A stretch of 64,000 nucleotides of DNA, taken from the NCBI RefSeq assembly GCF_004010195.1, contig NC_057718.1, forward strand, positions 7,622,787-7,686,786. The letters are read 5' to 3'. This document shows positions 16,921 through 63,048 of the stretch, one piece after another. The DNA is from Chiloscyllium plagiosum (taxonomy: Eukaryota). The notes beneath the pieces are model-generated. The model was given only the letters and a program-made list of their open reading frames with translations, had not been told where the DNA came from and did not search any database. Position numbers and translations under genes: made by a program. Position 1 is the first letter of the stretch. Every line of letters begins with the position of its first letter.

Positions 16921-17019
16921 GTAGGGTCAAGAGTATGGTGCTGGAAAAGCAGAGCAGGTCAGGCAGCATCAGAGGAGCAGGAGAGTCAACGTTTCGGGCA
17001 AAAGCCCTTCATCAGAAAT
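16921..17019 (-). mobile_element. Penelope-like terminal module (family P1) with hammerhead
   Basis: Module gtgctggaaaagc...caggcagcatc...cgtttcgggcaaaagcccttcatcag; flanked by gataca at 16915-16920 and 17020-17025. Confidence 0.75.
16985..17019 (-). ncRNA. Minimal type-I hammerhead ribozyme motif
   Basis: Minus strand CUGAUGA-A-GGGC-UUUU-GCCC-GAA-ACGU-U; catalytic core boxes intact. Confidence 0.65.
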
Positions 17020-17092
17020 GATACATTCGGGACATTTAAGCGACCTTTGGAAAGGCACATGGAAGATGAAGGGTAGGTTTGTCTGATCTTAG

Positions 17093-17186
17093 GCAGAAGT
17101 GTGGACTGCAGATGCTGGAAACCAGAGTTTAGATTAGAGTGGTGCTGGAAAAGCACAGCAGGTCAGGCAGCATCCGAGGAGCAGCC
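17093..17186 (-). mobile_element. Penelope-like terminal module P1, truncated before the ribozyme
   Basis: actgcagatgctgg...gtggtgctggaaaagcacagcaggtcaggcagcatcc; TSD ttgt(c/t)tgatcttag 17079-17092 / 17187-17200. Confidence 0.75.
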
Positions 17187-17544
17187 TTGTTTGATCTTAG
17201 AGTAGGATAAAAGGTTTGCACAACATCGAGGGCCGAAGGGCCTTTACTGTGCTGTACTTTTCTATGTTGTATTTCCAAAGGCAGGAAAGTACTGTCCAGT
17301 GGCCGTGGTGATGCCTCTGAAGATGCAAGTCTTGCTTTTTAGGTGCTGCACAGGAATGTTACAATCCAAATTTGACACTGAGCCTTGTTTCATTTTGGTT
17401 GTTCAGGGGGAGTGAGTGTTGCCTGGAAGCCTAACACGCCCCAGCAGAGGTTCTCAGTGAAGCAGAGAGACTTAGGATAAACGAAAATCTGAGGTGACCT
17501 TCACTAACTTGAGATACTTGTTGATGGCATCTTTAACACAAGAC

Positions 17545-18000
17545 TGTGGCATAGTGGTAACGTCACTGGGTTAGTACAGCCAGTTCTGCTGTTACATGCC
17601 TTTCATTAATGCGAGTCATGAGCAGGGAATGCTGTTTCTAAAACACAAACTTTTAAAGTGTGGGTTGGCAATAACGTGATTACATCGGCAACACTTTAAG
17701 TGCGATTTTTTTGTACAGAGTGGGGTCACACAGGAACGCAACTATCGCGTTATAGAAGAAACAACAGTGGTCCATGAACCAGTTGGCAGAATGAGTTTGA
17801 ATCCCTCCGTGGCAGGTAGTAAAATCTGAATTTAAAGAAAATAAAAACAGGAGTCTGAGAACAGCACTGTCAATTGCACTAAAGAAAACACTATTGGGTT
17901 CATCATTGTCTGTGATTCCAAACCGAGAGCAATGTGGTTGATTCTTAATTGCCTTCTGGGCAATTAGGGATGGGAGATTCCCAAACTGATTAAAAAAAAT
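17545..18000 (+). mobile_element. SINE family B interrupted by a MITE
   Basis: Head tggcatagtggtaacgtcactgg resumes after 17767; tail gggcaattagggatggg. Confidence 0.7.
17577..17767. mobile_element. Tc1/mariner (Tigger/pogo-like) MITE, degenerate
   Basis: TA then cagccagttctgctgttac at left; cgcgttatagaagaaacaacag at right as imperfect TIR; cleanly interrupts a SINE head. Confidence 0.55.
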
Positions 18001-18102
18001 AAACAGGCCACAATCTGAATGTTGGATCAGTCTATCTCAAACACTTTGAATGACGGAGCAGGTTTGATGGGCTGAACGCTGCATCTCCCAAGTCTACAAG
18101 GT

Positions 18103-19335
18103 GTGAGAAAGGATTCTGAGGGATAGGATTTATGACCATCTGGAAGAGCATGGCTTGATTAAGTGCAGTCAATACGGCTTTGTGAGGAGCAGGTCATGCC
18201 TCACAAACTTTATCGAGTTCTTTGAGAATATGATTAGAAAAGTTGATGAGAGTCGAGCTGTGGATGTGGTGTATATGGACTTCAGCAAGGCATTTGATAA
18301 GGTTCTAGGAGTAAGTGAGGACTGCAGATGCTGGAGATCAGAGCTGAAAATGTGTTGCTGGAAAAACGCAGCAGGTCAGGCAGGGGAAGGAGCAGGGGAA
18401 TCGATGTTTCGGGCATGAGCCCTTCTTCAGGAATTTGATAAGGTTCCCCATGGTAGGCTCATTCAGAAGGTCAGGAGGAATGGGATACAGGGGAACTTAG
18501 CTGTCTGGATACAGAATTGGCTGGCCAACAGAAGACAGTGAGTAGTAGTAGAAGGAGAAAAATATTCTGCCTAGAAGTCAGTGGTGAGTGGTGTTCCACA
18601 GGGCTCTGCCCTTGGGCCTCTACTGTTTGTAATNNNNNNNNNNNNNNNNNNNNNNNNNNNNNNNNNNNNNNNNNNNACATAGATCCCTTAAAATAGCCAC
18701 CCAAGTGGACAGGGTTGTTAAGAAATCATATGGTGTTTTGGCTTTCATTAACAGGGGAATTGAGTTTAAGAGTTGAGATCTTGTTGCAGCTCTATAAAAC
18801 TTTGGTTAGACCGCACTTGGAATGCTGCGTCCAGTTCTGGTCGCCTTATTATAGGAAAGATGTGGATGCTTTGGAGAGGGTTCAGAGGTGGTTTACCAGG
18901 ATGCTGCCTGGACTGGAGGGCTTGTCTTATGAAGAGAGGTTGACTGAGCTCGGTCTTTTTTCATTGGACAAAAGGAGGAGGTGAGGGGACCTAATTGAGG
19001 TATACAAGATAGTGAGAGGCATAGATAGAGTCGATAGCCAGAGACTATTTCCCAGGGCAGAAATGGCTAACACGAGGGGTCATAGTTTTAATCTGGTTGG
19101 AGGAAAGTTTAGAGGGGATGTCAGAGGCGGGTTCTTTACACAGAGAGTTGTGAGAGCATGGAATGCGTTGCCAGCAGCAGTTGTGGAAGCAAGGTCATTG
19201 GGGACATTTAAGAGACTACTGGACAAGCATATGGTCACAGAAATTTGAGGGTGCATATATGAGGATCAGTGGTCGGCACAACATTGTCGGCTGAAGGGCC
19301 TGTTTTGTGCTGTACTGTTCGATGTTCTATGTTTC
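18103..19335 (+). pseudogene. CR1 LINE ORF2 (RT) fragment with 3' UTR; contains N-gap 18634-18676
   Basis: QYGFVRSRSCLTNFIEFFE...[34 protein letters not shown]; tail. Confidence 0.95.
18306..18432 (-). mobile_element. Penelope-like terminal module P1 with hammerhead variant
   Basis: Perfect 14-bp TSD atttgataaggttc 18292-18305 / 18433-18446; minus strand CUGAAGA-A-GGGC-UCAU-GCCC-GAAACAUC. Confidence 0.8.
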
Positions 19336-19932
19336 TTGGGAATACCAACACAGCTGGGGTTAATAGTCCAGACCGGTCGATTCTCAAACAAATGCCTTCC
19401 AAGCGTTGTTCCATGCTACAGCTGTGACAACACTGAGGGGGTTAATGTTCATCACCAAGCCCCAGGCTCCCTTGTGAGTGGAATTTACTTTCGCAGGGGC
19501 CAGGCACTTTTGCAAGCCGACACTTTATTTTTAGCCGAAGGTCTAATTTGCCGAGATGCTTCAGTGTTTTGCTGACGTCGAGAAAGTCAATGTGATTTAC
19601 CTCGGGGCAAGGAAAGATTGTGCGTTTTCCTTCAGAGCTGCGTCAGCTGCTTCGGAAAACTGGGAGCTCCCTGTGCAACCTGTGTATTTTGTTTGTTGCA
19701 AATTATTTGCCATGACCCCATTAGCATCTGTTGCTGGAGGCCTGTGAGTTCTGATGCATCAATGGCAATGCTGTGGGAAAACCCTTGGTTGGAGAGTGGC
19801 TCAGTGCTCCTCACAGGCCTGGCCACCCCCAGTTCACTGAGATGCAGCAGCCTGGAAACTCCTAACTGTTGTCCCTGCACTCTGTCAAATGCCACCAGAG
19901 AAGGTGAAAAGCAAGGAAGAGAGAGAGAGAGA

Positions 19933-20201
19933 AGATTAGATACCCTACAGTGTGGAAACAGGCCCTTCAGCCCAACAAGTCCACACCGATCCTCCGAAGA
20001 GTAATCCACCCGGACCCATTTCCCTCTGACTAATGCACCTAACACTGTGGGCAATTTAGCACGGCCAATTCTCCTGACCTGCACATTTTTGGACTGTGGG
20101 GGGAAACTGGAGCAAACCCACGCAGACATGGGGAGAATGTGCAAACACCACACAGACAGTCGCCTGAGGCTGGAATCGAACCCTGGTGCTGTGAGGCAGC
20201 A
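19933..20201 (-). mobile_element. HE1-type V-SINE
   Basis: Reverse complement of tail, V-domain and B box. Confidence 0.9.
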
Positions 20202-20494
20202 GTTAGGCTTTAACTATTGCGAAAGGCCAGACAAGCTGACAGTCTATTCTAGGGAGTGACTGAGAAAGGTCATGAAATGTATGAAGGGATTAGACAGGGT
20301 GGATGTAGACAAATATTTCCACTTGTTTCGGGCGGTGGGGGTTGGGGGGGCGGTGGGGGGGGAGATGAATTCATAACCAGGAACCATAAATTAAAGATAG
20401 TCACTAATAAATTCAAGAAGAAATCCATTTTTAACCAGAAAGTCGTTAGCATGTGGAACTTACTGCCACAGAGATAATTGAGAATTTTTTCTAA

Positions 20495-21585
20495 TATTGA
20501 TGCCTGGGACACAGCCATCACTGGCTGGGCCTGTATTTATTACCCATCCCCAATTACCCTCCAGAAGGTGGTAGTGAGCTGCCTTCTTGAGCCACTGTAA
20601 TTCTTGAAGTGCAAGGACACCCATAATATTGTTAGGAAGGGAATTCCAAAATTTTGACCCAACGACACAGAAGGAATGATGATACAGTAGCGCCTCGGCT
20701 TACAAACCTAATCCGTTCCGGGACCCGGTTCGCGAACCGAAATGATTGCGAACTGAATCGATTTTTCCCATTGTTCGGATAGCGTAAGAATGCTTGGATG
20801 TAGCGCACGCACCAAAGACGAACTGAATGAGATCACGCGGGGCCCGAGAGCTTTTGCGTTCAACAAGCGCGTAGCAAAGCAGAACAATGAAACCACGTGG
20901 TTGCACACGGGCTTTTTGCATTCGTACCTTCGTTCGTACCTTGAATTTCGTACGTACGTTGAAGCAAAGTTTTATGTACAATCCTGTTCGTAAACCGATT
21001 TGTTTGTGAACGGGGTTGTTCGTATGTCGAGGCGGTACTGTATATTTCCCAGTCATAACAGTGTGTGACTTGGAGGGGAACTTGAAGGGGGTATGCTGTT
21101 CTCCCATTTCTGCTGCCTTTGTCTTTTGAGCAGCTGGTGATCATGAGCTGGATAAGGAACCCTGATGATTTTTGCAGTGCATTTTGTAGTTGGCAAACAC
21201 TGCTGTGACTGAGTGTCAGTGATGAAGGAAGTGAATGTTTACGTTGGTGGATGTAATGCCAATCAAGCGGGCTGCTTTGTCCTGCTTCTTGTGTTGTAGG
21301 AGCTGCCCCCATCCAGGCAAGTGGGGAGTATTCCATCGCACTCCTGACATGTGCCTTCTAGATGGTGGACAGGTTTTGAGGAGTCAGGAGCTGAGTTATT
21401 GCGTTATTCTCAACATTTAACCCACTCTTGTAACCATGGTGTTTATGCAGGTAGTCCAGATCAATCTCTGGTCAATGATAACCCCCAGGGTGTTGATAGT
21501 GGAGGATTGATTCAGTGATGGTCATGCCATTGAATGTCAGGTATAGATATATAGTCTCTTATTTAACCATCACTGACATTTGGTA
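20495..21585 (-). mobile_element. LINE 3' fragment (CR1/L2-group, here LINE-B)
   Basis: Minus ORF MEYSPLAWMGAAPTT; tail is reverse complement of gggatgggtaataaatacaggcccagccag. Confidence 0.8.
20685..21040. mobile_element. Tigger/pogo-like MITE (356 bp), relatively young
   Basis: TIRs cagtagcgcctcggcttac / gtatgtcgaggcggtactg, TA on both sides (20683-84, 21041-42), CpG-rich, interrupts LINE-B at gatgata|tatttcc. Confidence 0.88.
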
Positions 21586-21792
21586 TGAATGGTAATTATA
21601 TAATGATGGAAAGATCAGCCATGATCTTAATGAATGCTGAAGCGAGCTTGATGGGCCAAATGGCCTACTCCTGCTTCTATTACTATGGAGCTATAAATAG
21701 TGTAGATGCATTGAAGGGGCAGCTGGATAAATAAAAGGAAAATGGAATAGAAAAAAAGGTCAGTTGATAAGATGGGGGATGGGGCAATGATG

Positions 21793-22450
21793 TGGGAGGT
21801 GGTGGCTTAGTGCTATTGTTGCTGGACTGTTAAACATGATGGCACGGTGGGCGGCATGGTGGCACAGTGGTTAGCACTGCTGCCTCACAGTGACAGAGAC
21901 CCGGGTTCTATTCCCGCCTCAGGCGACTGACTGTGTGGAGTTTGCACATTCTCCCCGTGTCTGCGTGGGTTTCCTCCGGGTGCTCCGGTTTCCTCCCACA
22001 GTCCAAAGATGTGCAGGTCAGGTGAATTGGCCATGCTAAATTGCCCGTAGTGTTAGGTAAGGGGTAAATGTAAGGGTATGGGTGGGTTACGCTTCGGCGG
22101 GTCGGTGTGGACTTGTTGGGCCGAAAGGCCTGTTTCCACACTGTAATGTAATGTAATGATACCTAGGGACTGTTGTGGGGACCTGGTTTCAAATCCCACC
22201 ACGGCAGTTTGTGGGGTTTGAATTCAATAAAAGTTTGGAATTAGGAGTCTAATGATAACCATGAATCCATTGTCAATAGCCAGAAAAATCCCACCTGATT
22301 CACTTAGTCCCTTTAGGAGAGGAAATCTTCCATTCTCCCCTGGCCTGGCCAACATGTGACTTCAGCCCCACAGCAATGTGGTTTGCCTCTTAACCATTAG
22401 TGATGGTCAGTAAAGGCCAGCTGAACCAACAAAATTCTCATCTCATGTAT
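21793..22450 (+). mobile_element. SINE family B hosting an HE1 SINE
   Basis: Head gggaggtggtggcttagtgc; body resumes ggggacctggtttcaaatcccacc after 22160. Confidence 0.75.
21849..22156 (+). mobile_element. HE1-type V-SINE, full-length
   Basis: gggcggcatggtggcacagtgg...gcctgtttccacactg(taatg)n. Confidence 0.95.
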
Positions 22451-22574
22451 GAAGGCATAACAAACAGAAATAACCAGCAAGGGAATCGAGGATTATGGGG
22501 ATAGTGGGGAAGGTGGAATTGAGTTTTGTCAAATCAGGTTTTTTTTTACTCCAGGGTTGATGAATTAGAGGGGA

Positions 22575-22858
22575 AGGTTTAAGATTAGAGGGGAAAGACT
22601 AAAAGGGAACCTGAGGGGCAACTTTTTTACACAGAGGGTGGTGTATACATGTGGAATGAGCTGCCAGTGGAAGTGGTTGAGGTGGGTACATTAACTACAT
22701 TTAAAAGGCATTTTGACAAATACATGGATAGGAAAGGGTTAGAAGGGTATGGCCCAAGTGCAGGGAAACGGGGTTAGTGTGGATGGACATTTTGGTCAGC
22801 GTGGACTAGTTTGGGCCAAAAGTCCTGTCTCCATGCTGTAGGACTCTATGACTCTATG
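22575..22858 (+). mobile_element. CR1 LINE 3' fragment
   Basis: tttttacacagagggtgg...tggaatgagctgcc...; tail gactctatgactctatga. Confidence 0.85.
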
Positions 22859-24099
22859 AGACGTGATCTTTATTAAATGGCTGGGCAGACCCAATGGCTT
22901 GCTTCTGCTTATTGTTCAGATAGAGCGGAAACATCAAGCATGTGTTGGGCTGTCTGGACTATCCATGATGTTAACTGTATGCAATTCAACATTGCTACAG
23001 AATCCGTGTGCCTGAGTCCCCTCTGTATCTGAGCCTCGGATTTCGCTGCTCCACAGTTCTCACCAGTGGCTGACAGTGACATGACACTCAGATTGGATTG
23101 TTTTGCCTTTGGGCTAAGTGCCGAAGTGGGAGGCACTGATAGCTGAACCTGCAGTTAGATTCCACTAACAGCAGTATCAGGGAAGTGTTTGGAGACATTT
23201 TCCTGAAAGCTGCTGGCTGTTTCCTCGTCTGATTGACCCTGGAGCTGATTTGGACACTGGAGCAGGGAGACGAGGGGCCTGATCACTGGGTATAGCACGC
23301 CCCTTCCCTCCCTGCTCTCTCCCAACTGACTCTACTGCTTCAGTAAGTCAGAGTCTGCCCTGTGTGGACTGGGGTGCAGTGTGGCTCAGGGTCAGCTGCT
23401 CTCACCCATTCTCATTTCCATAAGTCAATAGCTTTTGGCACTTTCTCCTCCCCCTGCTGTTGTTTTGCGTGATTGTTGTCAGGCACGGGCCTGTTTAGGG
23501 ACAGCGCGCACCACCCTGCAGGTCTGTCTGAGGACACAGGCAGACATTCTGCTCCCAGCCCCTACCTCCTCACTCACTTGGGAAATGGAAGGAAGATCTT
23601 TCGGTGGACCATTTACTTTGTTGCACTCCCTCCTTGCCCATTCTTTTTGCTTTTTCTTAACCTCGTGCTGTTCCTTCTTTCTTTTCTCTCTCTCTTTCCA
23701 ACATTACTACAGTCGCTTCAAAAGTGTAGTTTGCTGAAAAGTGCTTTGGAGCAACCTGAGAGGTGCTATATAAATGCAAGTGTTTCTTTCCCCTATTTCT
23801 GTCTTTCCCCATTCCCCTTTCTCTCTGTCTGTTGCACGTGCAAATATACAAATGAGTATTTGGCCAGTCAGCCCCTCAAGCCTGTTCTGCCATTCAGTCA
23901 GACAATAACTGATTTGATTGAGGCCTGTACTTGTTCACCAAACCGTCCACTCATTGACTCCCTTGTCTGACTCTGTCTTAAATGATCCTGGGTTCACTGC
24001 TGTCTGGGTAATGAGATCCACAGGCTCATGGCCACCTGAGAGGGAAAAAGAAATCTCCTCCCCTCTGTTTTACCTTCCTTTTAAACTCCGTCACTCTGT

Positions 24100-24375
24100 T
24101 TAGATTAGATTAGATTCCCTACAGTGTGGAAACAGGCCCTTCGGCCCAATCAGTCCACACCAGCCCTCCAAAGAGTAACCCACCCAGACCCATTTCTCTC
24201 TGACTAATGCACCTAACACTACGGGCAATTTAGCATGGCCAACTCTCTTGACCTGCACATCTTTGGACTGTGGGAGGAAACCGGAGCACCCGGAGGAAAC
24301 CCACGCAGACACAGGGAGAACGTGCAAACTCCACACAGTCAGTCGCCCGAGGCTGGAATCGAACCTGGGACCCCG
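24100..24375 (-). mobile_element. HE1-type V-SINE
   Basis: (TTAGA)n then reverse-complement tail and V-domain. Confidence 0.92.
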
Positions 24376-24551
24376 TTGCTTATCCACTGAGGGAAAGCCA
24401 ACCTTTCAGCATCCACCCTGTCAAACCCTCTCAGAATCAAACATATTTCAATAAGATCACCCCTCATTCTCCAACACAGACACAGACCTAACCTTTCCTG
24501 GGGGTGGTCAGTTGGCTGAACCTTCCAGAACAGTTTCTTAAATCAAGTGAA

Positions 24552-24752
24552 AGTAAACTTGCCCTAATTCTTCCAGGCCATAGTCTCACTCTCTCATTAG
24601 AGAGAGAGGTGACTGGGTGGTGATTTAACCTGAAGGTCACCACACCTCAGGCGAGATTGACAAGCTGAGACCTTTGTGGTAACTCAGCCCTTGCGGGAAT
24701 TGAACTCACGCTGTTGGTGTTACTCTGATTCGCAAGCTAACCATTGAGCTAA
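24552..24752 (-). mobile_element. Short tRNA-derived SINE (here family C)
   Basis: Reverse complement ttagctcaatgg...gagttcaattcccg...cctgaggtgtggtgaccttcaggttaaa...ctctctctaatgagag; homologues at 55960 and 59285. Confidence 0.65.
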
Positions 24753-28028: not shown

Positions 28029-28074
28029 GGGAATAGCAGGAAATAGGACTGTGTCCCATCTTCATTGCAGCCTT

Positions 28075-28316: not shown

Positions 28317-29075
28317 CCTTGACGACCAATGGATGTCCATGCCCACCAGTGAGTGAGGCTGGGTGAGATTCCCGGTCAGCTGGAGACCCACCATCACTAC
28401 CCCCACAGGTCCAGACTCCTACATGAATAGAAAAGTCCATATATCCGCAGCAATTCGGAACCTGCCAGTGCTCTGTGATGCATCGCTGCCTTGAGTTGAT
28501 AACACTCCTGAGTTCTAACAGATTTAGTTCTCCTGTGAACTGATCAGATTGTGGACAGTAAGATCCCACACATCGCAACTGTCTTCCCATTGGCCATCTT
28601 TAGCCCTTCTGACTGGGGGTTAGTTAGTCCCAGACTTGGGATCGGGCACAGTTGGGTGGGGCGGGGCATTCACTTGTCAATGACTGGACTTGAATATTCA
28701 AATGGATTTGGGTCTAGAACATAGAATACTCTGAGATTGGGGAGAGTGAGGTTTGAACACTGCAACTCCTGGTTCGTGAGGTAAAACCCTCCAGTGGTGG
28801 AGGTGAAAGGCCTCCTCTTATCGTTTCGTGGAGTGATGGGAGCTCCACGTGTTCCCATTGGGTGAGCTAGCAGACACTGATTGGAAGGTGATTAGCAAAA
28901 GGATCAGAGGTGACTTGAAGGGGAAATAAAATTCTCTTTATTCAGTGAGGGGGTCAGAATGTGGTGGAATCAGGGTCAATCCTAACTTTAATAAACAAAG
29001 GAATCAGATAATCGTCAGACGAGAAACAAAAAGTTGCAGATCTGTGAGGGACAGGTGAGTGAACGGGTCTAGGTG

Positions 29076-29203
29076 GGTGAAAGTGAGGACTGCAGATGCT
29101 GGAGAGTCAATGAAGAGTGGTGCTGGAAAAGCACAGTCGGTCAGGCAGCAACCAAGGAGCAGGAGAGTCGACGGTTCAGGCATAAGCCCTTCATCAGGAA
29201 TGT
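29076..29203 (-). mobile_element. Penelope-like terminal module P1 (hammerhead with GAAA>GAAC change)
   Basis: aaagtgaggactgcagatgctgg...cataagcccttcatcaggaatg; flanks tctag(g/c)tgggtg on both sides. Confidence 0.78.
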
Positions 29204-30594: not shown

Positions 30595-30599
<5 letters not shown>

Positions 30600-37065: not shown

Positions 37066-37227
37066 AAGACGAAGCAATCTCATGGATATTACAGATGCTG
37101 GCAATCTGAAATCAGAACGGACTGTGCTGGAAATATTGTTGAATCGTACAGAGTGGAAGAGGCCCTTCAATCCATCGAGTCTGTGCCACTAAAAATATAC
37201 TACAACAATTGACACATTCCAATTGGG

Positions 37228-37344
37228 CGAAAGTGTGTACTGCAGATGCTAGAGATCAAAGTCAAGATTAGAGTGCTACTGGAAAAGCACAGTAGGTCAG
37301 GCAGCACCCAAATAGCAGGAGAATCGAGGTTTCGGGCAAAAGCC
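37228..37344 (-). mobile_element. Penelope-like terminal module P1
   Basis: Module ends in stem II gggcaaaagccc; TSD caca(t/c)tccaa(t/c)tggg 37213-37227 / 37345-37359. Confidence 0.78.
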
Positions 37345-37939
37345 CACACTCCAACTGGGGTCCCTCCAGGTTTTGAGGACCCCAATGTGCACTGTAGCTC
37401 CTCACAAGGTGACCTTGGAAATGCCTGATTTTTAGGTGGCAGGCCCCACCAGAGGGAGAATTTCAATATCTGGATGTGGTTTGGGTCATGTTCCAATTTT
37501 CTGACATTATAATTGAGCCGTCATCTCTCTTAAACATGGAATTGTTCTGACTTTTTCAATGACACTGAGAAATCATTGCTAGGCTCTTGTCATTTAGTGA
37601 AGCCAATCAAATTACCACAAATGATTACGAGCTCATTTGTTTTGTTTGGATGGTAAAGGCTAAAAACAAATTGACAGTTATTAAAGGTCAGACAAACTGT
37701 GTCTTGCTTACAACGAGTAGTCAAAAGGCCTGTGCCCTATTTTAACACTTCTATATGTTACAACCAATGCAAACAAATTCTGGGTGTGATTCATTGAGTC
37801 GGTGCAGTGTCAGTGTTCAAACCTTGCACTCCATCTTCAAGACTAAAGGACCAGATGGTGTTATTAGAGGAAATCTCACAAATGAAAGGGAAAACAGAAT
37901 AGGTAGACATTTACTCAAACACTCCTCCCCCAGCATCAG

Positions 37940-39424: not shown

Positions 39425-39610
39425 GGAGGAGAAAGTGAGGTCTGCAGATGCTGGAGATCAGAGATGGAAATGTGTTGCTGGAAAAGCGCAGCAGGTCAGG
39501 CAGCATCTAGGGAACAGGAGAATCGACGTTTCGGGCATGAGCCCTTCTTCAGGAATGAGGAAAGTTGGTCCAGCAGGCTAAGATAAAAGGTAGGGAGGAG
39601 GGACTTGGGG
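39425..39610 (-). mobile_element. Penelope-like terminal module P1, long variant (left arm of composite)
   Basis: Largely the reverse complement of 40888-41021. Confidence 0.82.
39521..39557 (-). ncRNA. Minimal type-I hammerhead ribozyme motif
   Basis: Minus strand cauuc-CUGAAGA-A-GGGC-UCAU-GCCC-GAA-ACGU-C-ga. Confidence 0.7.
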
Positions 39611-40562
39611 CTGTCTGGATACAGAATTGGCTGGCCGAAAGAAGACAGCGAGTGGTAGTGGATAGAAAGCATTCCGCCTGGAAGTCAGTGACCAACGTTG
39701 TTCTTGGACCTCTGGTCTTTGTAGTTTTTATAAATGACTTGGACGAAGAAGCGGAAGGGTTGGGTTAGTAAGTTTGCCGATGACACAAAATTCGATGGTG
39801 TTGCAGTTAGTATCGAGGGCTATCGCAAAGTACAACAAAACATTGGCAGGATGCAGAGTGGGGCTGAGAAGTGGCAGAAAGAGTTCAACCTGGATAAATG
39901 CAAAGTGATTCATTTTGGAAGTGCAAATTTGAATGCAGGTTTAAGACAGGATTCTTCGCAGTGTAGAGGAACAGCGGGATCTTGGCGTCCGTGTACATAG
40001 ATCCCTCAAAATTGTCACCTAAGTTGATAGGATTGTTAAGAAGGTGTTTTGGCTTTCATTAACAGGGGGATTGAGTTTTAAGAGCCGTGAGGTTTTGCTG
40101 CAGGTGTATAAAACCCTGGTCAACTTGGAATATTGTGTCCAGTTCTGGTCACCTTATTATAGGAAGGATGTGGATGCTTTGGAGAGGGTGTAGAGGAGAT
40201 TTACCAGGATGCTGCCTGGACTGGAGTGCATGTCTTATGAAGAGAGGTTGCGTGAGCTAGGGCTTTTCACACTGGAGAGAAGGAGGAAGAGAGGTGACTT
40301 GATAGAGGTGTACAATGTAATGAGAGGCATAGATGGAGTACATAGCCAGAGACTTTTCCCCAGGACAGAAATGGCTGTCACGAGGGGTCATATTTTTAAG
40401 GTGATTGGAGGAAGGTATAAAGGAGATGCCAGGGGTAAGTTCTTTTCACAGAGAGTGATGGATGCATGCCAGCAATGGTGGTAGAGTTGGAGATATTAGG
40501 GACATTCAAGCAACTGCTGGACAAGCACGTGGACAGCAGTAAATTGAGGGTTGTGTAGCTTA
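39611..40562 (+). pseudogene. CR1 LINE ORF2 (RT) fragment inside the composite insertion
   Basis: VWIQNWLAERRQRVVV; VSKFADDTK; MLPGLECMSYEERLRELGLFTLE. Confidence 0.92.
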
Positions 40563-40844
40563 GGCGGAAGTAGGTACTGCAGAGGCTGAAGATTAGAATC
40601 AAGATTAGAGTAGTGCTGGAAAAGCANNNNNNNNNNNNNNNNNNNNNNNNNNNNNNNNNNNNNNNNNNNNNNNNNNNNNNNNNNNNNNNNNNNNNNNNNN
40701 NNNNNNNNNNNNNNNNNNNNNNNNNNNNNNNNNNNNNNNNNNNNNNNNNNNNNNNNNNNNNNNNNNNNNNNNNNNNNNNNNNNNNNNNNNNNNNNNNNNN
40801 NNNNNNNNNNNNNNNNNNNNNNNNNNNNNNNNNNNNNNNNNNNN

Positions 40845-41021
40845 TCACCCTCACCTTGACCTCTTTCCACCTATCACATTTCCGACGCCCCTCCCCCAGT
40901 CCCTCCTCCCTATCTTTTATCTTAGCCTGCTGGACAAACTTTCCTCATTCCTGAAGAAGGGCTCATGCCCGAAACGTCGATTCTCCTGTTCCCTAGATGC
41001 TGCCTGACTTGCTGCGCTTTT
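40845..41021 (+). mobile_element. Penelope-like terminal module P1 (right arm of composite)
   Basis: Pyrimidine-rich segment, then hammerhead, then gatgctgcctgacttgctgcgctttt. Confidence 0.82.
40946..40982 (+). ncRNA. Minimal type-I hammerhead ribozyme motif
   Basis: CUGAAGA 40951-40957, stem II GGGC-UCAU-GCCC, GAA-ACGU-C 40971-40978 (GUC cleavage triplet). Confidence 0.72.
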
Positions 41022-41345
41022 CCTAGCTGTATTATCACTGGACTGCTGGGGCCTAGCTGTATTATCACTGGACTGCTGTTCGAGAGAGCCAGGACCGTTC
41101 TGAGGACCCAGGTTTGAATCCCACCAAGGCAGATGTGAAGTTTGGATTCAAGACAAAGTCTGGAATCAAGAGTCTAATAATGACCATGAATCTGTTGTTG
41201 TGAAGATCTATCTGGTTCATTAATCCCTCTTACGGAAGGAAAGGCTCTGCGTGTGACTCCAGGCCCACAACAATATGGTTGACTCAATGAGGGATGGGCA
41301 ATAATGCTGGTCGAGCCAGTGGCACCCTCATCCTGTGAATGAAGT
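41022..41345 (+). mobile_element. SINE family B (head begins ~39405, split by the composite insertion)
   Basis: cctagctgtattatcactggactg...ggtttgaatcccacc...gggatgggcaataatgctgg tail. Confidence 0.75.
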
Positions 41346-41926
41346 AAAGGAAGGATGAGACGGGATGTCCAAAATTCTAATAGGGTTGGACAGATTAGGT
41401 GCAACTCACTGGATTTGAAACGTTAACTCTGCTTTCTGTCTGCAGCTGCTGCCAGACCTGCTGAGTTTCTCCAGCAATTTCCAATTTTTTTATTTCAGAA
41501 CTCTGGAGTGCACAGTTCTTTGGTTCTTTGTTTTATTTGAGATGCAGGGGAGGATAATTTCCCTGGTTGGGGAGTCTCAAACTGGTGGTGGGGGGTCACA
41601 GGTTTGAGGGGGCTGCTGTCAAGCATATTAATAGGTCACTGTCACATTGCTGCATTTAAATAGCTGTGGTGTTTCCAACGTTGCAAGCCATTGAAGATTA
41701 AACAAATAATTCATCGGCGATAAAACACTTTTTGGACTCTGAATGCAAGTTTTTGTTTTATTTTGTTATCAATATGAATGACACATTAGTCTGGCACATG
41801 CTTCCTTTATGATATATTATAACCCTCTGGCACTGCCCACATTGAAATAAATAATGCATTATTTTCAGGATAAATGAGTTTTAGTTTAGTCAGAGTTCAT
41901 GTGAGAGCCATACAGTTTAGATGAGA

Positions 41927-52345: not shown

Positions 52346-52472
52346 CCGGCGAAAGTGAGGACTGCAGATGCTGGAGATCAGAGTCGAGAGTGTGGTGCTG
52401 GAAAAGCACAGCAGGTCAGACAGCATCCGAGGAGCAGGAGAATCAACATTTCGGGCAAAAGCCTTTCTATCT
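52346..52472 (-). mobile_element. Penelope-like terminal module P1
   Basis: Perfect 16-bp TSD tgacttcagtctccct 52330-52345 / 52473-52488. Confidence 0.82.
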
Positions 52473-54591: not shown

Positions 54592-55092
54592 TTGTGAAAC
54601 TTGAAAGGGTTCAGAAAAGATTTACAAGGATGTTGTCAGGGTTGGAGGGTTTGAGCTATAGGGAGAGGCGGAACAGGCTGGAGCTGGTTTCCCTGGAGTG
54701 TCGGAGGCTGAGGGGTGACCTTACAGAGGTTTACAAAATCATGAGGGGCATGGATAAGATAAATAGATGTCTTTTCCCTGGGGTAGGGGAGTCCAGAACT
54801 AGAGGGCATAGATTTAGGATGAGAGGGGAAAGATATAAAAGGGACCGAAGGGGCAATCTTTTTCACGCAGAGGGTGGTACGTGTATGGAATGAGCTGCCA
54901 GAGGGAGTCGTGGAGGCTGGTACAATTGCAACATTTAAAAGGCATCTGGATAGGATATGAATAGGAAAGTTTGGAGGGCTGTGGGCCGGGTGCTGGCAGG
55001 TGGGACTAGATTGGGTTGGGATATCTGGTTGGCATGGACGGGTTGGACCGAAGGGTCTGTTTCCATGCTGTACATCTCTATGACTCTATGTG
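54592..55092 (+). mobile_element. CR1 LINE 3' fragment
   Basis: KLERVQKRFTRMLSGLEGLSYRER; ctctatgactctatg tail. Confidence 0.94.
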
Positions 55093-55959
55093 ACTTTAAA
55101 TCGGAGCACATTGCTGTGTCGAGTTTGCCTTGCCATTCAGCAAAGTTGTATTTTGATCTGATTTTGGTTTTAGCTCGAGCTTCCTGCCTGCCTCCATCAC
55201 CCATGAGCCCCTTGTGGATGTAAAGTCTCTCTAACTCTGCCTTGACGATATTCGATCCCCCAGCCTCCACTGCTCGCTGGGAAAGAAAATTGCGAAAGAA
55301 TTCCGAGAGAAGCCGAGTGGCCCTCTGAGAGAAAAGGCCTCTTCTCCTCTTCGTCTTAAATGGGCAAACTGCCCACCCTGCTCGCAGACTTAGCTACAAG
55401 ATGGACCATCTCCCTAGCCTCTACCCTGGTAGTTCCCTTTGCATATGCTTCACCTGTCATTGAAACTCCGAGTAAACTCCTCCTGCAGGGTAAAGCCAGT
55501 GGGTCTAATCCACAAGATTCCGCCCCTCCCCCCCCCTCCCCACCTCCCATCAGAATGGGATTGAGGTGGGACTGTGATACTGCTTCCTGTTGAATTGTTT
55601 GCTAATGTTTATTGGTGAGGATTCAGTGCAATTATTTTGATCAAAATCTGGTCACGTTTGGTGTTAATTGGCAAATTCAGAGCCCAGTGACAGATTTTGC
55701 TTCAGACTGCATTAATAAACAGCGAGAATGCATCTTAAGAGACTCAAATCCACTGGTCACCTTGCTAAGACAGAAAGTTTACATTGCTGTCGAAAGCCTG
55801 TATGTCTGGGGGAACAGTCTTCCCGATAATGCATTTGACCAGCCTGCCTTATACCGTCCAATTAAACACCCAAATAAAAATCTAACAGGCTTATGAATAG
55901 AAATGCAATTCGCGCATCAGAGGGAGACCCGTTAATACTGGAGAATGAGGGTGGGCTCC

Positions 55960-56150
55960 CTTAGCTGTATGGGTGGGTGAGTGAGTGAGGTGGCTGGTTT
56001 GTAGCGTGGAGTGAAGCCAACGCGTGGGTTCAATTCCTGCACCGGCTGAGGTTATCATGAAGGATCTCAGATGTGGTGACCCTCAGGTTCGACTCGCTGC
56101 CCGCTACCTCTCCCGACTGAGAGAGCAGTTCTCCGAAACAATGACAATTA
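55960..56150 (+). mobile_element. SINE family C (degenerate)
   Basis: gggttcaattcctgcaccggctgaggtt...gtggtgaccctcaggtt. Confidence 0.6.
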
Positions 56151-57109
56151 TGCTGTTACTATTCGGGAATGAATGTACTGTCCCCCCCCACCATCCATTT
56201 TGAAGTGTAGGATTTGAGTCTGCCCTGTGTTCCACCATGCAGTTTGGACTGCCATTTGAGCCTGACAGGATATGTCAGGTTGGAGTTGAGGGGTCACCTT
56301 TGACCTGCCAAGGGCACCTGACCCTGCTAGGAACAGCAAGTGAAACCCGACAAAGCCCAGCCGAAGACACTTCTGTTTCCGGCTCACATTGGTCCCCTCA
56401 AAGCAAACTTGGGAAGTTTTGTTCTGCTGGGGGTCAAGGGGCCCGGGCCACTGTCTGCCGACAACCCCTCCACTCTCCCCTCCTGCGACGGAGCGAAATA
56501 TTGGTAACCGTCGTGCCATGGAGATGCACCTGTTAAGACCACTCCATAGGCCAGTGTGTCAACTGCACCTCACCGTCCAATCTCAATGGACCATCCCAAA
56601 GGCATGGTACAGCCAATGAGGCACTCTCAAAGGGTGTCCAAGCATGTGACAGGGTCATACAGCATAGAAACAGTCCCTTCAGCCCACCATGCTCATGCTA
56701 GCCAACACACAACTCATCCTGTGATGTAGCAGCCAACTTGCACAGCATGATCCCACAAGCGCCAGAGCGACATTGGCTGATTATTTTTTTTCCTGAGCAA
56801 AGTTACATGAAGAGTTAAATACCACCACCCCCACCCTCCCGCAGTTGCTTCTCTGTGACATACCCCACAAATGGGGTCATTTCGCCCCCACCAGAGAGGG
56901 GCAAAAGGTGGACGTTGAGGCGAGAAGGGGTTGGGGTGGGTGGGTGGGATCAGATTTAAGGACTCACCCACAAGACACTACCTCCAGCCCCCGGAGCGCC
57001 CCCTCAGTGGGAGCCTGTATCTCAGGAGTGGGGCATTGCATGTCTGACTGTGTGGCGTGTGTGTTCACTCTCGGGTCAGTCTGAACTACCAATCCTATCC
57101 CCTACATCA

Positions 57110-57767
57110 GGGTGGCATGGTGGCTCAGTGGTTAGCACTGCTGCCTCACAGTGCTGGGGATGCATGTTCAAGTCTAGCCTCGGCAATTGTCTGTGTGGAG
57201 TTTGCACATTTTCTCCGTGTCTGCGTGGGTTTCCCCTGGGAGCTCTAGTTTCCTTCCATAATCCAAAGATGTGCAGGTTAGGTTGATAGGTCCAGTTATA
57301 AGTGGAAGTTTTAGGGGAGGCAATGGCCGAGTGGTGCCGGTGGTGGACTATTAATTCAGAGATCCAGGAAATCTTCTGAGGAACCTGCGTTTGAATCCTA
57401 CCACAGCAGAAGGTGGAACTTGTATTCAGTAAATATCTGAAATGCAGAGTCTAAGGATGGCCATGAATTGGGAAAACCCATCTGGTTCACTAATGTCCTT
57501 GAGGGAAGGAAACTGCCATCCTTACCTGGTCTGGGCCTACATGTGACTCTAGGCCCGCAGCAATATGGTTGACTTTTAACTGCCCTCTGGGCAATTAGGG
57601 ATGGGTAATGAATGGTGCCTAGCCAGCGATACCCACATCTCATGAATGCATAAAAAAAATTGACCATGGGCGATGTAAAGTTAGAGATTCTGAGTGGGGC
57701 AGGGGAGAGATGGGTCAGTGTGGACTTGATGGGCTGAATGGCCTGCTTCCACACTGTAAGGATTCTA
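57110..57767 (+). mobile_element. HE1-type V-SINE split by a family B SINE (57314-57659)
   Basis: HE1 head and V-domain 57110-57285; HE1 tail gggtcagtgtggacttgatggg...cacactgtaaggattcta 57710-57767; inner SINE starts ggggaggcaatggcc and ends in an A-run. Confidence 0.85.
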
Positions 57768-58352
57768 AGTCACATGTCAAACTTCTTGACGATAGAAAGC
57801 AGGAATGTGCAAAGCCGCAGGGAATTCGTCACTGTACGTTAGAGAGCTTTTTTTAAATGTCCTATTTTATTTGCTGACAATGCCAGCCCCTTGGGCACTG
57901 TTTCTTCATCTCTTTGATGCCACCCTTGTTAACCAAATGTTGGTGAAACGTGCAGCTACGAAGCCTGATAAATCTTGTCAAATGTCACCTGCTCGACAGC
58001 TGAAAATGGGTAGTTTCTGGGCCAGGCTTTGGAGAAGGCAGCTTATTCTCTCTCACTTTAATAGTTTGCCCTTTTGCAGCGAACAAGAGTGTTATCTGCC
58101 CACCCACACTCATCTGCCTTGCTGACGTGGTGCCTCAGTGCCTCATTTGCACATGCTATTTTTGTGAAGGAAAGCAGAGAGCTATACGCCTGCTCCACCT
58201 TCCCTCACCCACCCCCCTAGTGAGTGGCTCAGTCAGTTCAGCAGTGGCCCTGACACAATGATCAGATCCACTGAACCTTTTACAGACAATCAAAAGCACC
58301 TCACAGCCACTGACATGTCAGACTCCTGTTGCTCCTGGCAGTAGCGGAGGCT

Positions 58353-58375
58353 ACACACACACACACACACACACA

Positions 58376-58436
<61 letters not shown>

Positions 58437-58678
58437 CTCTCACACATACACACACACACAGACTCACTCGCACAGATACACACACACAGACACAAACTCA
58501 CACTCACACACAGACTCCCTCTCACACACAAACACACACTCACATAGACACAAGACACAAACATGTGTGCGCACACACAAACTCACTCACACAGACTCAC
58601 TCGCACAGACACAAACTCACACTCACACACAGACTCCCTCTCTCTCTCTCACACTCACACACACACGCACACACACAT
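58353..58678. repeat. (CA)n/(TC)n compound microsatellite with internal duplicated block
   Basis: Block acagactcactcgcacaga...caaactcacactcacac..agactccctctc occurs at ~58457 and ~58591. Confidence 0.93.
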
Positions 58679-59284
58679 TGTGACTGTGCAATCTCCATAC
58701 TCTCTCTCTTTACCTTCTGGGGCTGAGGAGCTGAGTTAAAAGGGAAATGTAATTGCATTTCAGCCATGCTGTTCTTAACTGCAGCCCAACTCAAGGGTCA
58801 CTTAAACCTTCCCAAGGAGGGTGGCATTTTTTATATATTGTCACAGACAGGGAAAGTGAATATTTTGCTAGGAGTGAGTTTGGGAATCCTCTGTGGTTCA
58901 GTAGGAATTTCTGACCTGGAGCTTCTTCAAACTTCACAGCACTCCCTCTTTGCCAGATGCTACCTGATGGAAAAAGTGTGGATGTAAAAGGTCGAAGGTG
59001 CGCACCTGCAGGTTTATTGGCCTCGTTGGGTTGCACAGGCTGCAAAAGTGCATTTATTTTTATGTGTCTGTGTGAAAATGCAAAGGAACTTGGCCTTAAC
59101 CTGATGGGCAATGTCCCCCCTGACTGAAAGGTCAGCCCCATCTCTTGCCCTACACCCCACTCACCTGCGCACACATTCAGAGTTCAGAGCATTCAGAGTT
59201 TCGTCATCTCGCACCTCCTGTGTTCCCCGAAAGTTGAAATAAAGACTGCACTTATGAAGCCCCTGTCATAGCTTTCACCTTGCT

Positions 59285-59575
59285 GGTCCTTGGTTGGACA
59301 GCTGGTTTGTGGTGTACGGTTCAACATCAAAAGGGTTGTGTGTTCAATTCCTGCACTAGTTGAGATTAGGAGAAAGTGAGGATTGCAGTTGCTGGAGATC
59401 AGAGTCGAGAGTGTGGTGCTGGAAAAGCACAGCAGGTCAGGAAGCGTCGGAGGAGCAGGAAAATCAATGTTTCGGGCATAAGTGCTTCGTCAGAAACTGG
59501 TTGGGATTAGCACCGTCTCAACCTTTCCCTCGCCTGAGGCATGGTAGCCCTCAGGTTAAACCATCACCAGTCGTA
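59285..59575 (+). mobile_element. SINE family C split by a P1 module
   Basis: ttcaattcctgcact... resumes tctcaacctttccctcgcctgagg...ctcaggttaaacc. Confidence 0.65.
59370..59495 (-). mobile_element. Penelope-like terminal module P1 (degenerate hammerhead)
   Basis: TSD act(a/g)gttg(a/g)gattag 59355-59369 / 59496-59510. Confidence 0.8.
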
Positions 59576-59712
59576 TAGAGTCACATAGTATCCAGGAGCA
59601 AATTACTGAATCTGTACTAAAAACAGAAATGCCAGAGGTCACAGTGGGTCAGGCAGCATTCATGGAGAGAGAGCGAGCAAGCTAATGTTTCGAGTGTAGA
59701 TGACTGTTCATT

Positions 59713-60275
59713 GTGCAGCACAGAAACAGACCCTTCAGCCCAACTAGTCCATGCCGACCATAATCTCCGACTAAACTCGTCCCACCTGCCTGCGCTTGGC
59801 CCATATCCCACCAAACATTTCTTATTCATGTACTTATCCAAATGTAATTTAAACATGTAACTGTATCTGCATTCAACACTTCCTCTGGAAGTTCATTCCA
59901 CACACAAACCACTCTGTGTGTAAAACAAAATTGCCCCTCATGTCTTTTTTTAAATCTTCCTCCTCTCCCCTTAAAAATATGCCCCCTCATCTTGAAATCC
60001 CTCACCTTAGGGAAAAGATTTTCACCTTATCGATACCCTTCATGATTTTATAAATCTCTATAAGGTCACCCCTCAACTTCCCACACTCCAGTGAAGGAAA
60101 GTCCCAGCCTCTCCTTATGACTTAAACCCTCCATTCCCAGCAACATCCCAGTAAGGCTTTTCTGAGCCCTCTCCATCTTAATAACACCCATCCTATAGCA
60201 GGGCGACCAGAGCTAGAGACAGTACTCCCCAGAAGAGGCCTCACCAACATCCTGTCCAACCTCAACATGACATCC
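59713..60275 (-). mobile_element. CR1 LINE 3' fragment
   Basis: Minus ORF FKLHLDKYMNKKCLVGYGPSAGRWD and upstream ORF2 remnants. Confidence 0.9.
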
Positions 60276-60709
60276 CTGGTGGGCAACCTTTCCACACCAA
60301 CTCTGTGAAGTCCCCTTAGGATCTTCTACTTTTCCTTAAGGCCACCTCTCATTCTTTGATGTTCCAATGAGTGCAGGCTTCACCTATTTGACCTCTCCTT
60401 CAGACAGTGCCTCCAGATTTGACATTAGCTTATGGTACCTTGTCTGGACTGTCTCTACAGCCAGTATCTCTTTCCTCAGAGAAATAATATAACCAGGGAG
60501 CTGAGAGGTGGAATCATAAAATTGTACAGCACAGGAAGAGGCCATTCACCCCATAGTGTTTGTACTAGCTCTTGAAAGAGCTATCCAATTTCAGCCCACT
60601 CCCCTTGGTGCTGGTCTCTATAAGCTCTAAATAAATCAAGGGGCTTTTCTCCTTGGAGAGAATTAGGGGTTACAGGGATAAGGCAGGAATGTGGACTTGA
60701 CTGACATAA

Positions 60710-60840
60710 CACAAAGAACTGCAGGTGCTGGAAATCTGACAGAAAGTCAGAAATTGCCAGAGAAACTCAGCAGGTCAAGCACCATCCGTGGGGAGAGAAA
60801 ACGGAGTTAACGTTTTGAGTCCAGTGACCCTTCATCAGAA
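60710..60840 (-). mobile_element. Penelope-like terminal module, family P2
   Basis: Minus strand CUGAUGA-A-GGGUC-ACUG-GACUC-AAA-ACGU-U (G12>A); related pieces at ~13845-13950, ~41405-41520, ~59615-59710. Confidence 0.65.
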
Positions 60841-61517
60841 GATGGGCTCTTGAGGATTACCAGATGAGCCATGATCTCGTCGAATGGCGGAGTGGACTCG
60901 ATGGGCTGAACGTCCTACATCTTGTAGCCTTTGGATTGGACTGTTCTGGTTTGACTTTCCCTGGCAATTTGTGGGATAGTAACAGCGTGATGGGCAGTGC
61001 CCTTGCATCTGAGCAAGGAACCCCTGGTGGGCCAGGAAGGTGGTGAAACGTTCTGGGCACATGTCAGTGGAAGCCATTAAAAGCGGGCGAGAGTGAGTCT
61101 TGGTCAACCATGCTGGGCACAGAGTGGCACCCTCTGGAGATACAGCCTGTGGTGACAATCTCTTGTGATTGGTCCCGGTGAAAGGAACTGCGGAAACGGG
61201 TAGAAGCAGCACTTTGCTGGTGTCATGGGTCTTTCTAGATGTGGGAAAGGAAAAATACAAGTTTGGTGCTCAGGATGTGGTAAATCGATCATGCGTTAAG
61301 TGGACACGTTTTTAGCAATGACTTTACAGCTACTATAATGAGGTGACACTACTCTTGAACTGACACTGCATCCAGACTCATCTGAAGGATCTGAATTGGC
61401 ATGTCACCACGAATTCTGTTAAGGACCTTGCTCAGCACAGACGAGCTGCAACGTTTCCTTACATTGGTAAATGCTTTTCAGGTCTCCTGAGCTGTGCTAG
61501 GTGCTATACCAATGTAA

Positions 61518-61878
61518 ATGGAGACATATAAGGTAATCAGAGGGTTAGGTAGGGTGGACAGTGAGAGCCTTTTTCCTCTGTTGGTGATGGCGAGCACGAG
61601 GGGACATAGCTTTAAATTGAGGGGTGACAGATATAAGACAGATGTCAGAGGTAGTTTCTTTACTCAGAGAGTAGTAGGGGTGTGGAATGCCCTGCCTGCA
61701 ATAGTAGTAGACTCACCAACTTTAAGGGCATTTAAATGGTCATTAGATAAACATATAGAGGGGAATGGAAGAGTGTAGGTTAGATGCCCTTCAGATTGGT
61801 TTCACAGGACAGCACAACATCGAGGGCCGAAGGGCCTGTACTGCGCTGTAATGTTCTATTCGATGTTCTGTGTTCTAA
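61518..61878 (+). mobile_element. CR1 LINE 3' fragment
   Basis: ETYKVIRGLGRVDSESLFP...FFTQRVVGVWNALP; tgttcta tail. Confidence 0.92.
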
Positions 61879-62097
61879 ATCTGGGATGGTGCTGTCATGT
61901 AACAAAATCCAGTCACTTTCAGACCGATACATGAATGGGCAGGGAGCAGAGGGATACAGACCCTTAGGAAATAGTTGGCGGGTTTAGATAGAGGATCTGG
62001 ATTGGTGTGTTGTGTGTGACAACACTGTGTCACAACGGCTCTTCTTAATATTTTTTTAATTTAACCTATTTTTTGAATCATCTTGTTCAGGAACCAA

Positions 62098-63048
62098 ATC
62101 ATAGAATCCCTATAGTGTGAAAACAGGCCATTCATCCCACCTAGTCCACACTAATCTTCCAAAGAGAATCCCATCCAGACCAGTTCCCATATCCTGTCCC
62201 TGTAAGCATTACATTTTCCATGGCTAACACACCTAACCTGCACATCCCTGAACACTGTGGGCAATTTAGCGTGGCAAATCTGCCTAACCTGCATATCACT
62301 GAACACGCAGACACTGGGTGTATGTGCAAACTCCACACAGACAGTCACCCAAGGCTGGCGTTGAACCTGGGCCCCTGGCACTGTGAGGTAGCAGTGGACA
62401 GTGTGGTGCTGGAATAGCAGAGCAGGTCAGGCAGCATTCGAGGAGCAGGAAAATTGACGTTTCAGGCATAAGCCTTTCATTAGACATCAAGTCTCCTGCT
62501 CCTCAGATGCTGCCTGACCTGCTGTGCTTTTCCAGTACTAAACTCTTGACTCTGACTCTCCAATCTTCAATTTCTCCTCGACTGTGAGGCAGCAGTTGAA
62601 CAGGCTGGGGCTGTTTTCCCTGGAATGTCAGAGGCTGAGGAGTGATCTTATAGAGGTTTATAAAATCATGAAGGGCATGGATAGGATAAAGAGACAAGGT
62701 CTTTTCCCTGGGGTAGGGGAGCCCAGAACTAGATGGCATAGGCTTAGGGTGAGAGGGGAGAGATATAAAGGATACCTAAGGGGCAATGTTTTCACGCAGA
62801 GGGTGATGTGTGCGTGTGTGTGCGCGCAATGAGCTGCCAGAGGAAGTAGTGGAGGCTGGTACAATTGCAGCATTTAAAAGGCATCTGGATGGGGATATGA
62901 ATAGGAAGGGTTTGGAGGGATATGGGCCAAATGCTGGCAAACAGGACTAGTTGGGTTGGAATATCGGGTCGGCATGGATGAGTTGGATTGAAGGGTCTGT
63001 TTCCATGCTGTACAGCTCAATGCTGACCACTGAGCCACCGTACTGCCC
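62098..63048 (-). mobile_element. HE1-type SINE split by an inverted P1 pair (62396-62580) and a CR1 fragment (62597-63020)
   Basis: SINE body ends ggcactgtgaggtagcagt; head tgctgaccactgagccaccgtactgccc resumes at 63021. Confidence 0.82.
62597..63020 (+). mobile_element. CR1 LINE 3' fragment
   Basis: LNRLGLFSLECQRLRSDLIEVYKIMKGMD. Confidence 0.92.

Follow-up and report, generated by a model that had tools for sequence, protein, structure and literature searches.

The 64-kb window analysed here (64,000 nucleotides of Chiloscyllium plagiosum, contig NC_057718.1, positions 7,622,787 to 7,686,786) contains many copies of a short module, most of them reduced to about 95–130 bp and stopping sharply at or near the 5' edge of a minimal hammerhead ribozyme motif. 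As judged from its sequence, the module is the pseudo-long terminal repeat (pLTR) end of a Penelope-like element (PLE) with an endonuclease (EN+). Its short copies, here called stubs, are probably, though with real room for other explanations, short non-mobile insertion products of this EN+ PLE, for which the element's own RNA served in cis as the template. This differs from the proposal of an earlier note on the same DNA, which saw in them a discrete non-autonomous unit, similar to a short interspersed element (SINE) or a retrozyme, delimited by the ribozyme.

Ends and target-site duplications of the short copies

Our unbiased sample consisted of the window and, from contigs C1–C6, 20 further stretches of 10 kb each at round coordinates (264 kb in all). 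Counts of ends rest on 52 single module copies (arms), and counts of target-site duplications (TSDs) on 35 curated events, taken from the window, from the 200 kb outside it and from a single long locus. The 30 loci found with a window copy, which are skewed to long young matches, were not used in the end counts. Omitted from the 52 arms are those at 40563 (N gap) and 49125 (30 nt), five matches of a second family and two fragments consisting only of open reading frame (ORF); N gaps censor or bridge three counted arms (L036, L042 and window 40845), and L037-7150 is bridged across a gap. Arms in the window were located by blastn/nhmmer, and genome-wide figures are exact short-sequence counts over the 3.56-Gb assembly. 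Module position 1 lies on the side of the end that most copies share, the predicted hammerhead cut falls between positions 97 and 98, and the modal end is at 128–129. The element reads along the minus strand of the window, so that each insertion has its 3' end at the shared side and its 5' (far) end at the hammerhead. The type labels A–E are our own naming of module subfamilies.

The far ends are strongly clustered: one arm ends at positions 40–84, seven at 85–97, none at 98–116, 14 at 117–127, 22 at 128–137 and eight beyond, so that 36 of the 52 stop at 117–137. The loss per nucleotide is 0.073 at 128–137 vs 0.004 at 138–200. The end of arm 62494 is coded 92 by BLAST and about 105 by nhmmer, and the 85–97 class therefore holds six or seven arms. 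Genome-wide, the exact counts for type A are 36,457 at the edge, 18,548 when four further bases are required and 8,111 when seventeen are; after correction for substitutions, 57–63% pass the first four bases, and the loss per base is 11–13% at the edge vs 2–4% after it. For types B and C there are 55,762 counts at the edge, of which 8,212 + 4,192 = 12,404 continue in the extensions tested (26–33% after correction, a share that untested extensions could raise). About 40% of type A and at most about 70% of types B and C stop within 4 nt of the hammerhead 5' edge. Moreover, at least 92,219 exact copies of an 18-nt part of the module occur in the genome, and an 18-mer that lies 43 nt past the edge still has 28,759, so that long copies are no rarity among the young types.

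Could the peak be an artefact of smooth 5' truncation, produced by subfamilies that diverge just after the hammerhead? The subfamilies do differ right past the edge (GAGGAAAG, GAGCAGAG, GAGGCTGG and AGAG), the references for types B and C are short, and de novo PLE insertions in Chlamydomonas have a median of 128 bp by truncation (PMC9977147). However, TSDs start directly at the edge in several copies (18433, 59496 and 17020), type A alone loses 3–6 times more at the edge than after it, two arms are joined exactly edge-to-edge at 849 loci, and only eight of the 52 arms end between positions 40 and 116. This explanation is largely refuted and we regard it as very improbable; the earlier note's view that the ends do not reflect random smooth truncation is borne out by the sampled arms and the genome-wide counts alike. 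Its idea of a unit delimited by the ribozyme did not survive, since the modal end lies 32 nt upstream of the predicted cut and retains the whole catalytic core.

Strong TSDs (score of at least 9) were found in 19 of the 35 curated events vs one of 500 mismatched flank pairs used as controls, with lengths of 12–16 bp and one called 18. In the other 16 events the TSD is absent or just 6–8 bp, and 6-bp matches are weak, as 35 of the 500 controls score at least 6. The statement that the copies usually insert with 14–16 bp TSDs has therefore to be softened: a characteristic length mode exists, at 12–16 bp, and 'usually' means slightly over half of the insertions. Both long events carry TSDs as well (12 and 14 bp), so the length of the TSD is a property of the enzyme rather than of the stub. 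Among seven tail-less single copies, exact flanking repeats of 6–8 bp occur in four (window 16923; L040 1433; L048 8606; L037 974) and repeats of at least 12 bp in none, while tailed singles and pairs give 12–16 bp and the tail-less long copy L051 has 12. The two start sites of reverse transcription may go with different cut staggers, but the numbers are small and 7% of the controls reach the score of 6–8 bp.

The 3' ends fall in two classes about 34 nt apart, at module positions up to 5 (28 of 52 arms) and at 30–42 (18 of 52). The copies that the earlier note called clipped at the shared end are indeed shorter there, but their end is a second defined class and not a random one. PLEs have an optional tail of 30–40 bp (PMC8557442), and by its position and length the interval between the two ends is this tail. 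Furthermore, 13 of the 35 events are head-to-head inverted pairs, in which usually one of the arms is tailed; head-to-head inverted pLTR copies are known for PLEs (PMC8557442, PMC3846280). No head-to-tail tandem units were found among the events in the 264 kb, and rare tandems occur in SRA contigs (joint 3442->3313, four contigs). In the inverted pairs L033, L035 and L045, and also at the joints 3313/3346–3353, one arm ends at the 128 edge and the other at 88–97, by the predicted cut. It is possible that the latter ends are the trace of a self-cleaved template, or of microhomology; the 85–97 class may come from microhomology between two GAAT-like ends.

Parent element, hammerhead motif and copies in the window

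In the loci found with the window copy, the module continues past the hammerhead into an untranslated region (UTR) of about 150 nt and the coding end of a GIY-YIG domain, or sits between inverted pieces of reverse transcriptase (RT). The clearest case is locus L051, a 5'-truncated copy with a tail-less module, a 3' UTR of about 150 nt and a frame of 708 aa, which matches RVT_1 (E 4.7e-8) and, at its C-terminus, GIY-YIG (E 2.9e-4; 21.5 bits, just under the 22.6 cut-off). Its best homologues are shark proteins with 70–83% identity, and the best named protein relatives of the window come from sharks and rays. The frame has a DKG motif (ADKGG), two cysteines between GIY and YIG (IIYCIRCSRCGLLYIG; CCHH type) and a CX4CxxC linker between RT and endonuclease (CNRRRCNTC). 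The pLTR with its hammerhead motif adjoins the ORF 3' end at L051, L009, L016 and L019, and a protein search of the genome gave 147 scored matches, many of them inside open frames of 300–900 aa. A PDB sequence search and a scan of metagenomes for the module each gave 0 matches. On these domains and junctions, the parent is an EN+ PLE and the module its pLTR end. The earlier note had asked for a Penelope-like RT/GIY-YIG parent as a check, and such a parent was found together with clustered far ends and a TSD length mode. A linker of the form CX2-5CxxC marks Neptune/Nematis and is absent from Penelope/Poseidon (PMC8557442), and so the motif points to a Neptune/Nematis-type parent; a Poseidon label was dropped for the same reason.

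Short copies of types A and D share their module sequence with copies that enter the ORF, type D agreeing at 98% per base. At the 5' junctions of long copies (L051 2560–3060; L012 1690–2170; L027) there are local tandem duplications of element sequence, with units of about 120, 25 and 30 bp, which suggests repeated re-priming. Fragments of more distant GIY-YIG/PLE lineages are present in L005 (minus strand, 187-aa frame) and in L043 1235–1683 (about 30–35% identity for L043).

The hammerhead is a minimal type I motif; it is known here as a motif only, with cleavage predicted from its letters. Read by eye, the core is kept across copies, loop II is variable and stem II has 4 bp. In the copy starting at 39428 the predicted cut lies between 39525 and 39524 and the modal element end is at 39556. 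An Rfam search of the window gave no hammerhead match, and in minimum free energy folding of the module stem II alone forms (z = 0.05). A second, older family of similar layout was seen at window 60716–60839, 41417–41477 and 13859–13946, at L031 2571–2690 and at L050 1976–2060. By eye, its minimal hammerhead covaries, with a longer stem II and with U-A instead of C-G as the first pair of stem I. Its copies at 60716 and in L050 likewise stop at the hammerhead 5' edge.

The window holds 13 arms of the module family (12871-, 16923, 17092, 18308, 29076, 37226, 39428, 40563, 40845-, 52348, 59369, 62393 and 62494-, the minus sign marking arms inverted relative to the others), where the earlier note had counted at least nine; its 27-mer has six matches at up to 3 mismatches, none exact, vs 0 in 100 shuffles. 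The coordinates are collected in Table 1. All six long TSDs that the note had placed were recovered (14–16 bp, 0–2 mismatches), as was the one of 6 bp; those at 29068/29207 and 39411/41022 are additional to its list. Most copies stop at or within the hammerhead, as it had said; the arm at 17092 ends short of it, and those at 39428 and 40845 run 55 and at least 100 nt beyond it. The stretch from 62380 to 62581, taken there as a single unit, proved to be a head-to-head pair.

Table 1. Module copies and their parts in the window
Feature	Position	Strand	Remarks
Old tailed stub	12871..12952	+	stops near position 92; without clear TSD; lies outside the coordinates given in the earlier note
Tail-less stub, type B	16923..17019	-	stops at hammerhead 5' edge; 6-bp TSD 16915/17020 (weak)
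Tailed stub, type C	17092..17186	-	stops near position 92, just short of predicted cut; 14-bp TSD 17079/17187, 1 mismatch
Tailed stub, type A	18308..18434	-	stops exactly at hammerhead edge; 14-bp TSD 18292/18433, 0 mismatches
Tailed stub, type B	29076..29202	-	12-bp TSD 29068/29207, 1 mismatch
Tailed stub	37226..37345	-	stops in stem II, position 117; 15-bp TSD 37213/37345, 2 mismatches
Compound insertion, 1.6 kb	39428..41023	.	14-bp TSD 39411/41022, 0 mismatches
Tail of about 34 nt between the two shared-end positions	39428..39461	-	putative RT start sites, by comparison with PMC11167929
Hammerhead motif (minimal type I) in the 39428 copy	39525..39556	-	CUGAAGA, stem II, GAAA, C-G/U-C; numbering by comparison with PMC4209133
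Tailed stub, type B	52348..52468	-	stops at position 120, 5-nt filler; exact 16-bp TSD 52330/52473, 0 mismatches
Tailed stub, type B	59369..59497	-	stops at hammerhead edge; 15-bp TSD 59355/59496, 2 mismatches
Head-to-head pair	62393..62579	.	tail-less arm 62393–62483 and inverted degenerate tailed arm; 16-bp TSD 62380/62581, 1 mismatch

The TSD 18292/18433 overlaps the element end by 2 nt, and the host sequence of that stub is an RT fragment that we take to be CR1-like. The compound insertion consists of a tailed arm to position 184, about 0.95 kb of captured CR1-like DNA, a type-C arm at 40563 interrupted by an N gap, and an inverted arm at 40845–41023. The combination of a pLTR arm (to about 184) with about 0.95 kb of this CR1-like DNA (window 39428–40560; L002–L008) was seen at eight loci with 98–99.7% identity, the copies having tailed or tail-less ends, differing far partners and differing junction letters. 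The pattern points to a young chimera mobilised by the PLE, or else to a single foreign RNA onto which the template was switched repeatedly. Head-to-head pairs would form long hairpins if transcribed; the one at 62408–62536 matches the microRNA precursor family MIR533 in Rfam with 46.8 bits vs a cut-off of 80, which is a false match.

Origin of the sharp 5' end

If the stubs are products made in cis, the following course may be proposed. The endonuclease would cut both target strands about 12–16 bp apart, and reverse transcription would start inside the RNA at one of two sites, leaving a tailed or a tail-less end. The cDNA would then cross the uncleaved hammerhead and stop where the template RNA usually begins. 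This RNA 5' end would arise either from a start on an Initiator-like TCATTCC/CTATTCC or from trimming back to a point protected by protein. Priming at a single nick would yield a simple stub, and priming at two a head-to-head pair of which one arm is tailed; long copies, the minority, would come from longer templates (tandem, read-through or circular). In types A, B, D and E the edge coincides with the A of TCATTCC and in type C with that of CTATTCC, which fits the Initiator consensus. PLE promoters are located in the pLTR (PMC3846280, PMC2377424). The steps are carried over from PAc, the Poseidon element of Anolis carolinensis, which cuts the two target strands and extends each of them, uses mainly uncleaved RNA as its template and begins reverse transcription at two internal sites, which define the tail (PMC11167929). 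The PAc template must reach about 55–60 nt past the start site (PMC11167929), and by analogy stubs that end at the start site should be dead on arrival.

Several points weigh against this course. PAc, as a Poseidon, belongs to a clade other than that of the element. In addition, the frame from the loop ATG is closed by a stop in four of five translated copies, the fifth having a frameshifting deletion, and the 39428 copy also has a stop; with this frame closed, the PAc geometry is not directly transferable. The loop II ATG was accordingly rejected as an ORF start (stop at about codon 24–27), and another frame runs open through a type-A module. No module continuing into an ORF was found among the best 150 copies, of which two lie in long open frames and one of these was read; that copy (C13) has unique DNA with stops downstream of the module, and with no ORF downstream it was rejected as a 5' pLTR–ORF junction. 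In D. virilis about 120 nt (46 nt and a 75-nt intron) separate helix I from the start site upstream of it (PMC4209133, PMC2377424), and a start at the edge is thus no general rule. The far ends scatter over about 20 nt, and the ends of type B and C arms were mapped against references stopping at about 129–140. RNA ends at the edge were sought in run X21, where 3,773 polyA single-cell reads gave no pile-up of starts or ends; they cover both strands, 98% run on into unlike sequence, and as 150-nt polyA reads they come from a library unsuited to test for short RNA. Run X22 contributed 0 reads.

The main rival keeps the same parent and products but has the stop made during the reaction, either because RT stalls or switches template on leaving a folded, protein-bound hammerhead, or because the endonuclease cuts back the newly made DNA at ATT. 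The modal end reads ATT on the sense strand, the ends are scattered from 117 to 137, and the PAc endonuclease favours ATT near its own ORF–pLTR junction while the PAc protein aids hammerhead folding (PMC11167929). The diverged second family also ends at its hammerhead edge (window 60839; L050), which fits either this stop or a template that begins at the edge. However, a stall would be expected before or in stem II, and no arm, or at most one, ends at its site (98–116); moreover, about 60% of type-A arms go past the edge. We consider a stop of this kind rather unlikely.

A second alternative, which we think improbable, is that at least type B is a discrete non-autonomous unit (SINE-like or a solo retrozyme), with short copies that are themselves transcribed and that the PLE protein mobilises again in trans. 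None of the 22 type-B arms in the set of 52 passes position 133, and only the minor share of B and C arms given above continues in the extensions tested. Non-autonomous PLE derivatives exist (MRC1; PMC8557442), retrozymes from pLTRs are known (bioRxiv 10.64898/2026.07.22.740005) and pLTRs worked in trans in Adineta (PMC3846280); the eight loci of the CR1-like chimera could be read in the same sense. Against it, 6,454 B-type arms genome-wide continue with GAGG, loose ends in three sequencing runs continue type B with the same five bases, three facing pairs 0.3–1.6 kb apart among the 100 matches listed suggest long B arms, and in L037 a B-like module and an ORF fragment stand collinear on either side of an N gap. 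The module maps entirely onto the PLE pLTR, and tailed or tail-less ends and inverted pairs differ insertion by insertion. No tandem arrays and no promoter head were seen, the boundary is not at the cut site, and tRNA, 5S and SRP gave no match in the window at E<=1, a search that did not include a scan for A/B boxes. With short A and D copies matching long modules, long copies carrying TSDs of the same length and no tandems among the sampled events, the discrete SINE/retrozyme lineage of the earlier note is not shown.

Returning to products made in cis, a bolder version is conceivable, which we hold as a tentative idea short of an expectation: the stubs would preserve, like fossils, the places where Penelope RNAs end in vivo, with two RT starts, a main 5' end at the edge and a minor 85–97 class recording self-cleavage, type B maybe being a self-propagating unit of about 130 nt as well. 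If true, edge-ended stubs would correspond in PLEs to the strong-stop DNA of retroviruses, inserted in that form, and the 85–97 class would represent self-cleavage in vivo, which is not reported for minimal hammerheads in the available text of the literature found.

Comparison with known systems and significance

The insertions resemble those of canonical EN+ PLEs in the RT with C-terminal GIY-YIG, the tail at one end, the head-to-head pLTRs with palindromic junctions, the TSDs and the solo pLTRs (PMC8557442, PMC3846280). They differ in TSD length, 12–16 bp vs 8–10 bp in Adineta (PMC3846280), and in that most events are reduced to the end of about 95–130 bp; a sharp peak at the hammerhead edge is not described in the available parts of those papers (PMC8557442, PMC3846280). 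With PAc they share a hammerhead about 110 nt from the shared end, two ends that define a tail and an uncleaved hammerhead in the DNA copies (PMC11167929). However, the parent has the CX4CxxC linker that Poseidon lacks, its loop ATG frame is closed, and no clustering of 5' ends is described for PAc in the text available (PMC11167929).

The motif agrees with the minimal type I hammerheads in its conserved core, the bulged nucleotide before stem II, the palindromic helix III of 1 bp and the short helix I; these are also mostly single dispersed motifs with some opposite-strand pairs, linked there to truncated PLEs as probable (PMC4209133). The differences are the stem II of only 4 bp and the copy number, the at least 92,219 copies of the 18-nt part standing against 4,000–9,000 motifs in coelacanth and Xenopus (PMC4209133). 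Sharks go unmentioned in the available text of that paper. Non-LTR retrozymes likewise have a type I hammerhead, pLTR-related sequence, long TSDs and dispersed monomers, but theirs are head-to-tail tandems with linear or circular RNA running from cut to cut, whereas the units here are single or head-to-head and their boundary is not the cut site (PMC7229834; bioRxiv 10.64898/2026.07.22.740005).

Published work thus already describes single dispersed minimal hammerheads that derive from truncated PLEs, as well as tails, inverted pLTRs and retrozymes of pLTR origin. The literature search, which did not cover Repbase and Dfam, found no description of this family in sharks and none of 5' ends peaking at the hammerhead edge of a PLE. 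The stubs are a real and extremely abundant set from a known kind of retroelement, and the sharp 5' end with a possible minor class at the cut site is a useful lead. The density is about one insertion per 7 kb (28 events in 200 kb), which by extrapolation would make roughly half a million stubs in the genome. For annotation, the stubs resemble a SINE family or one of miniature inverted-repeat transposable elements (MITEs) and belong filed with their PLE parent. The preferred stop outside the ribozyme hints at where the template RNA begins, and the abundance of the stubs gives junction statistics at single-base resolution with which models of the formation of PLE pLTRs, tails and inverted copies, and of hammerhead cutting in vivo, can be tested (PMC11167929, PMC4209133).

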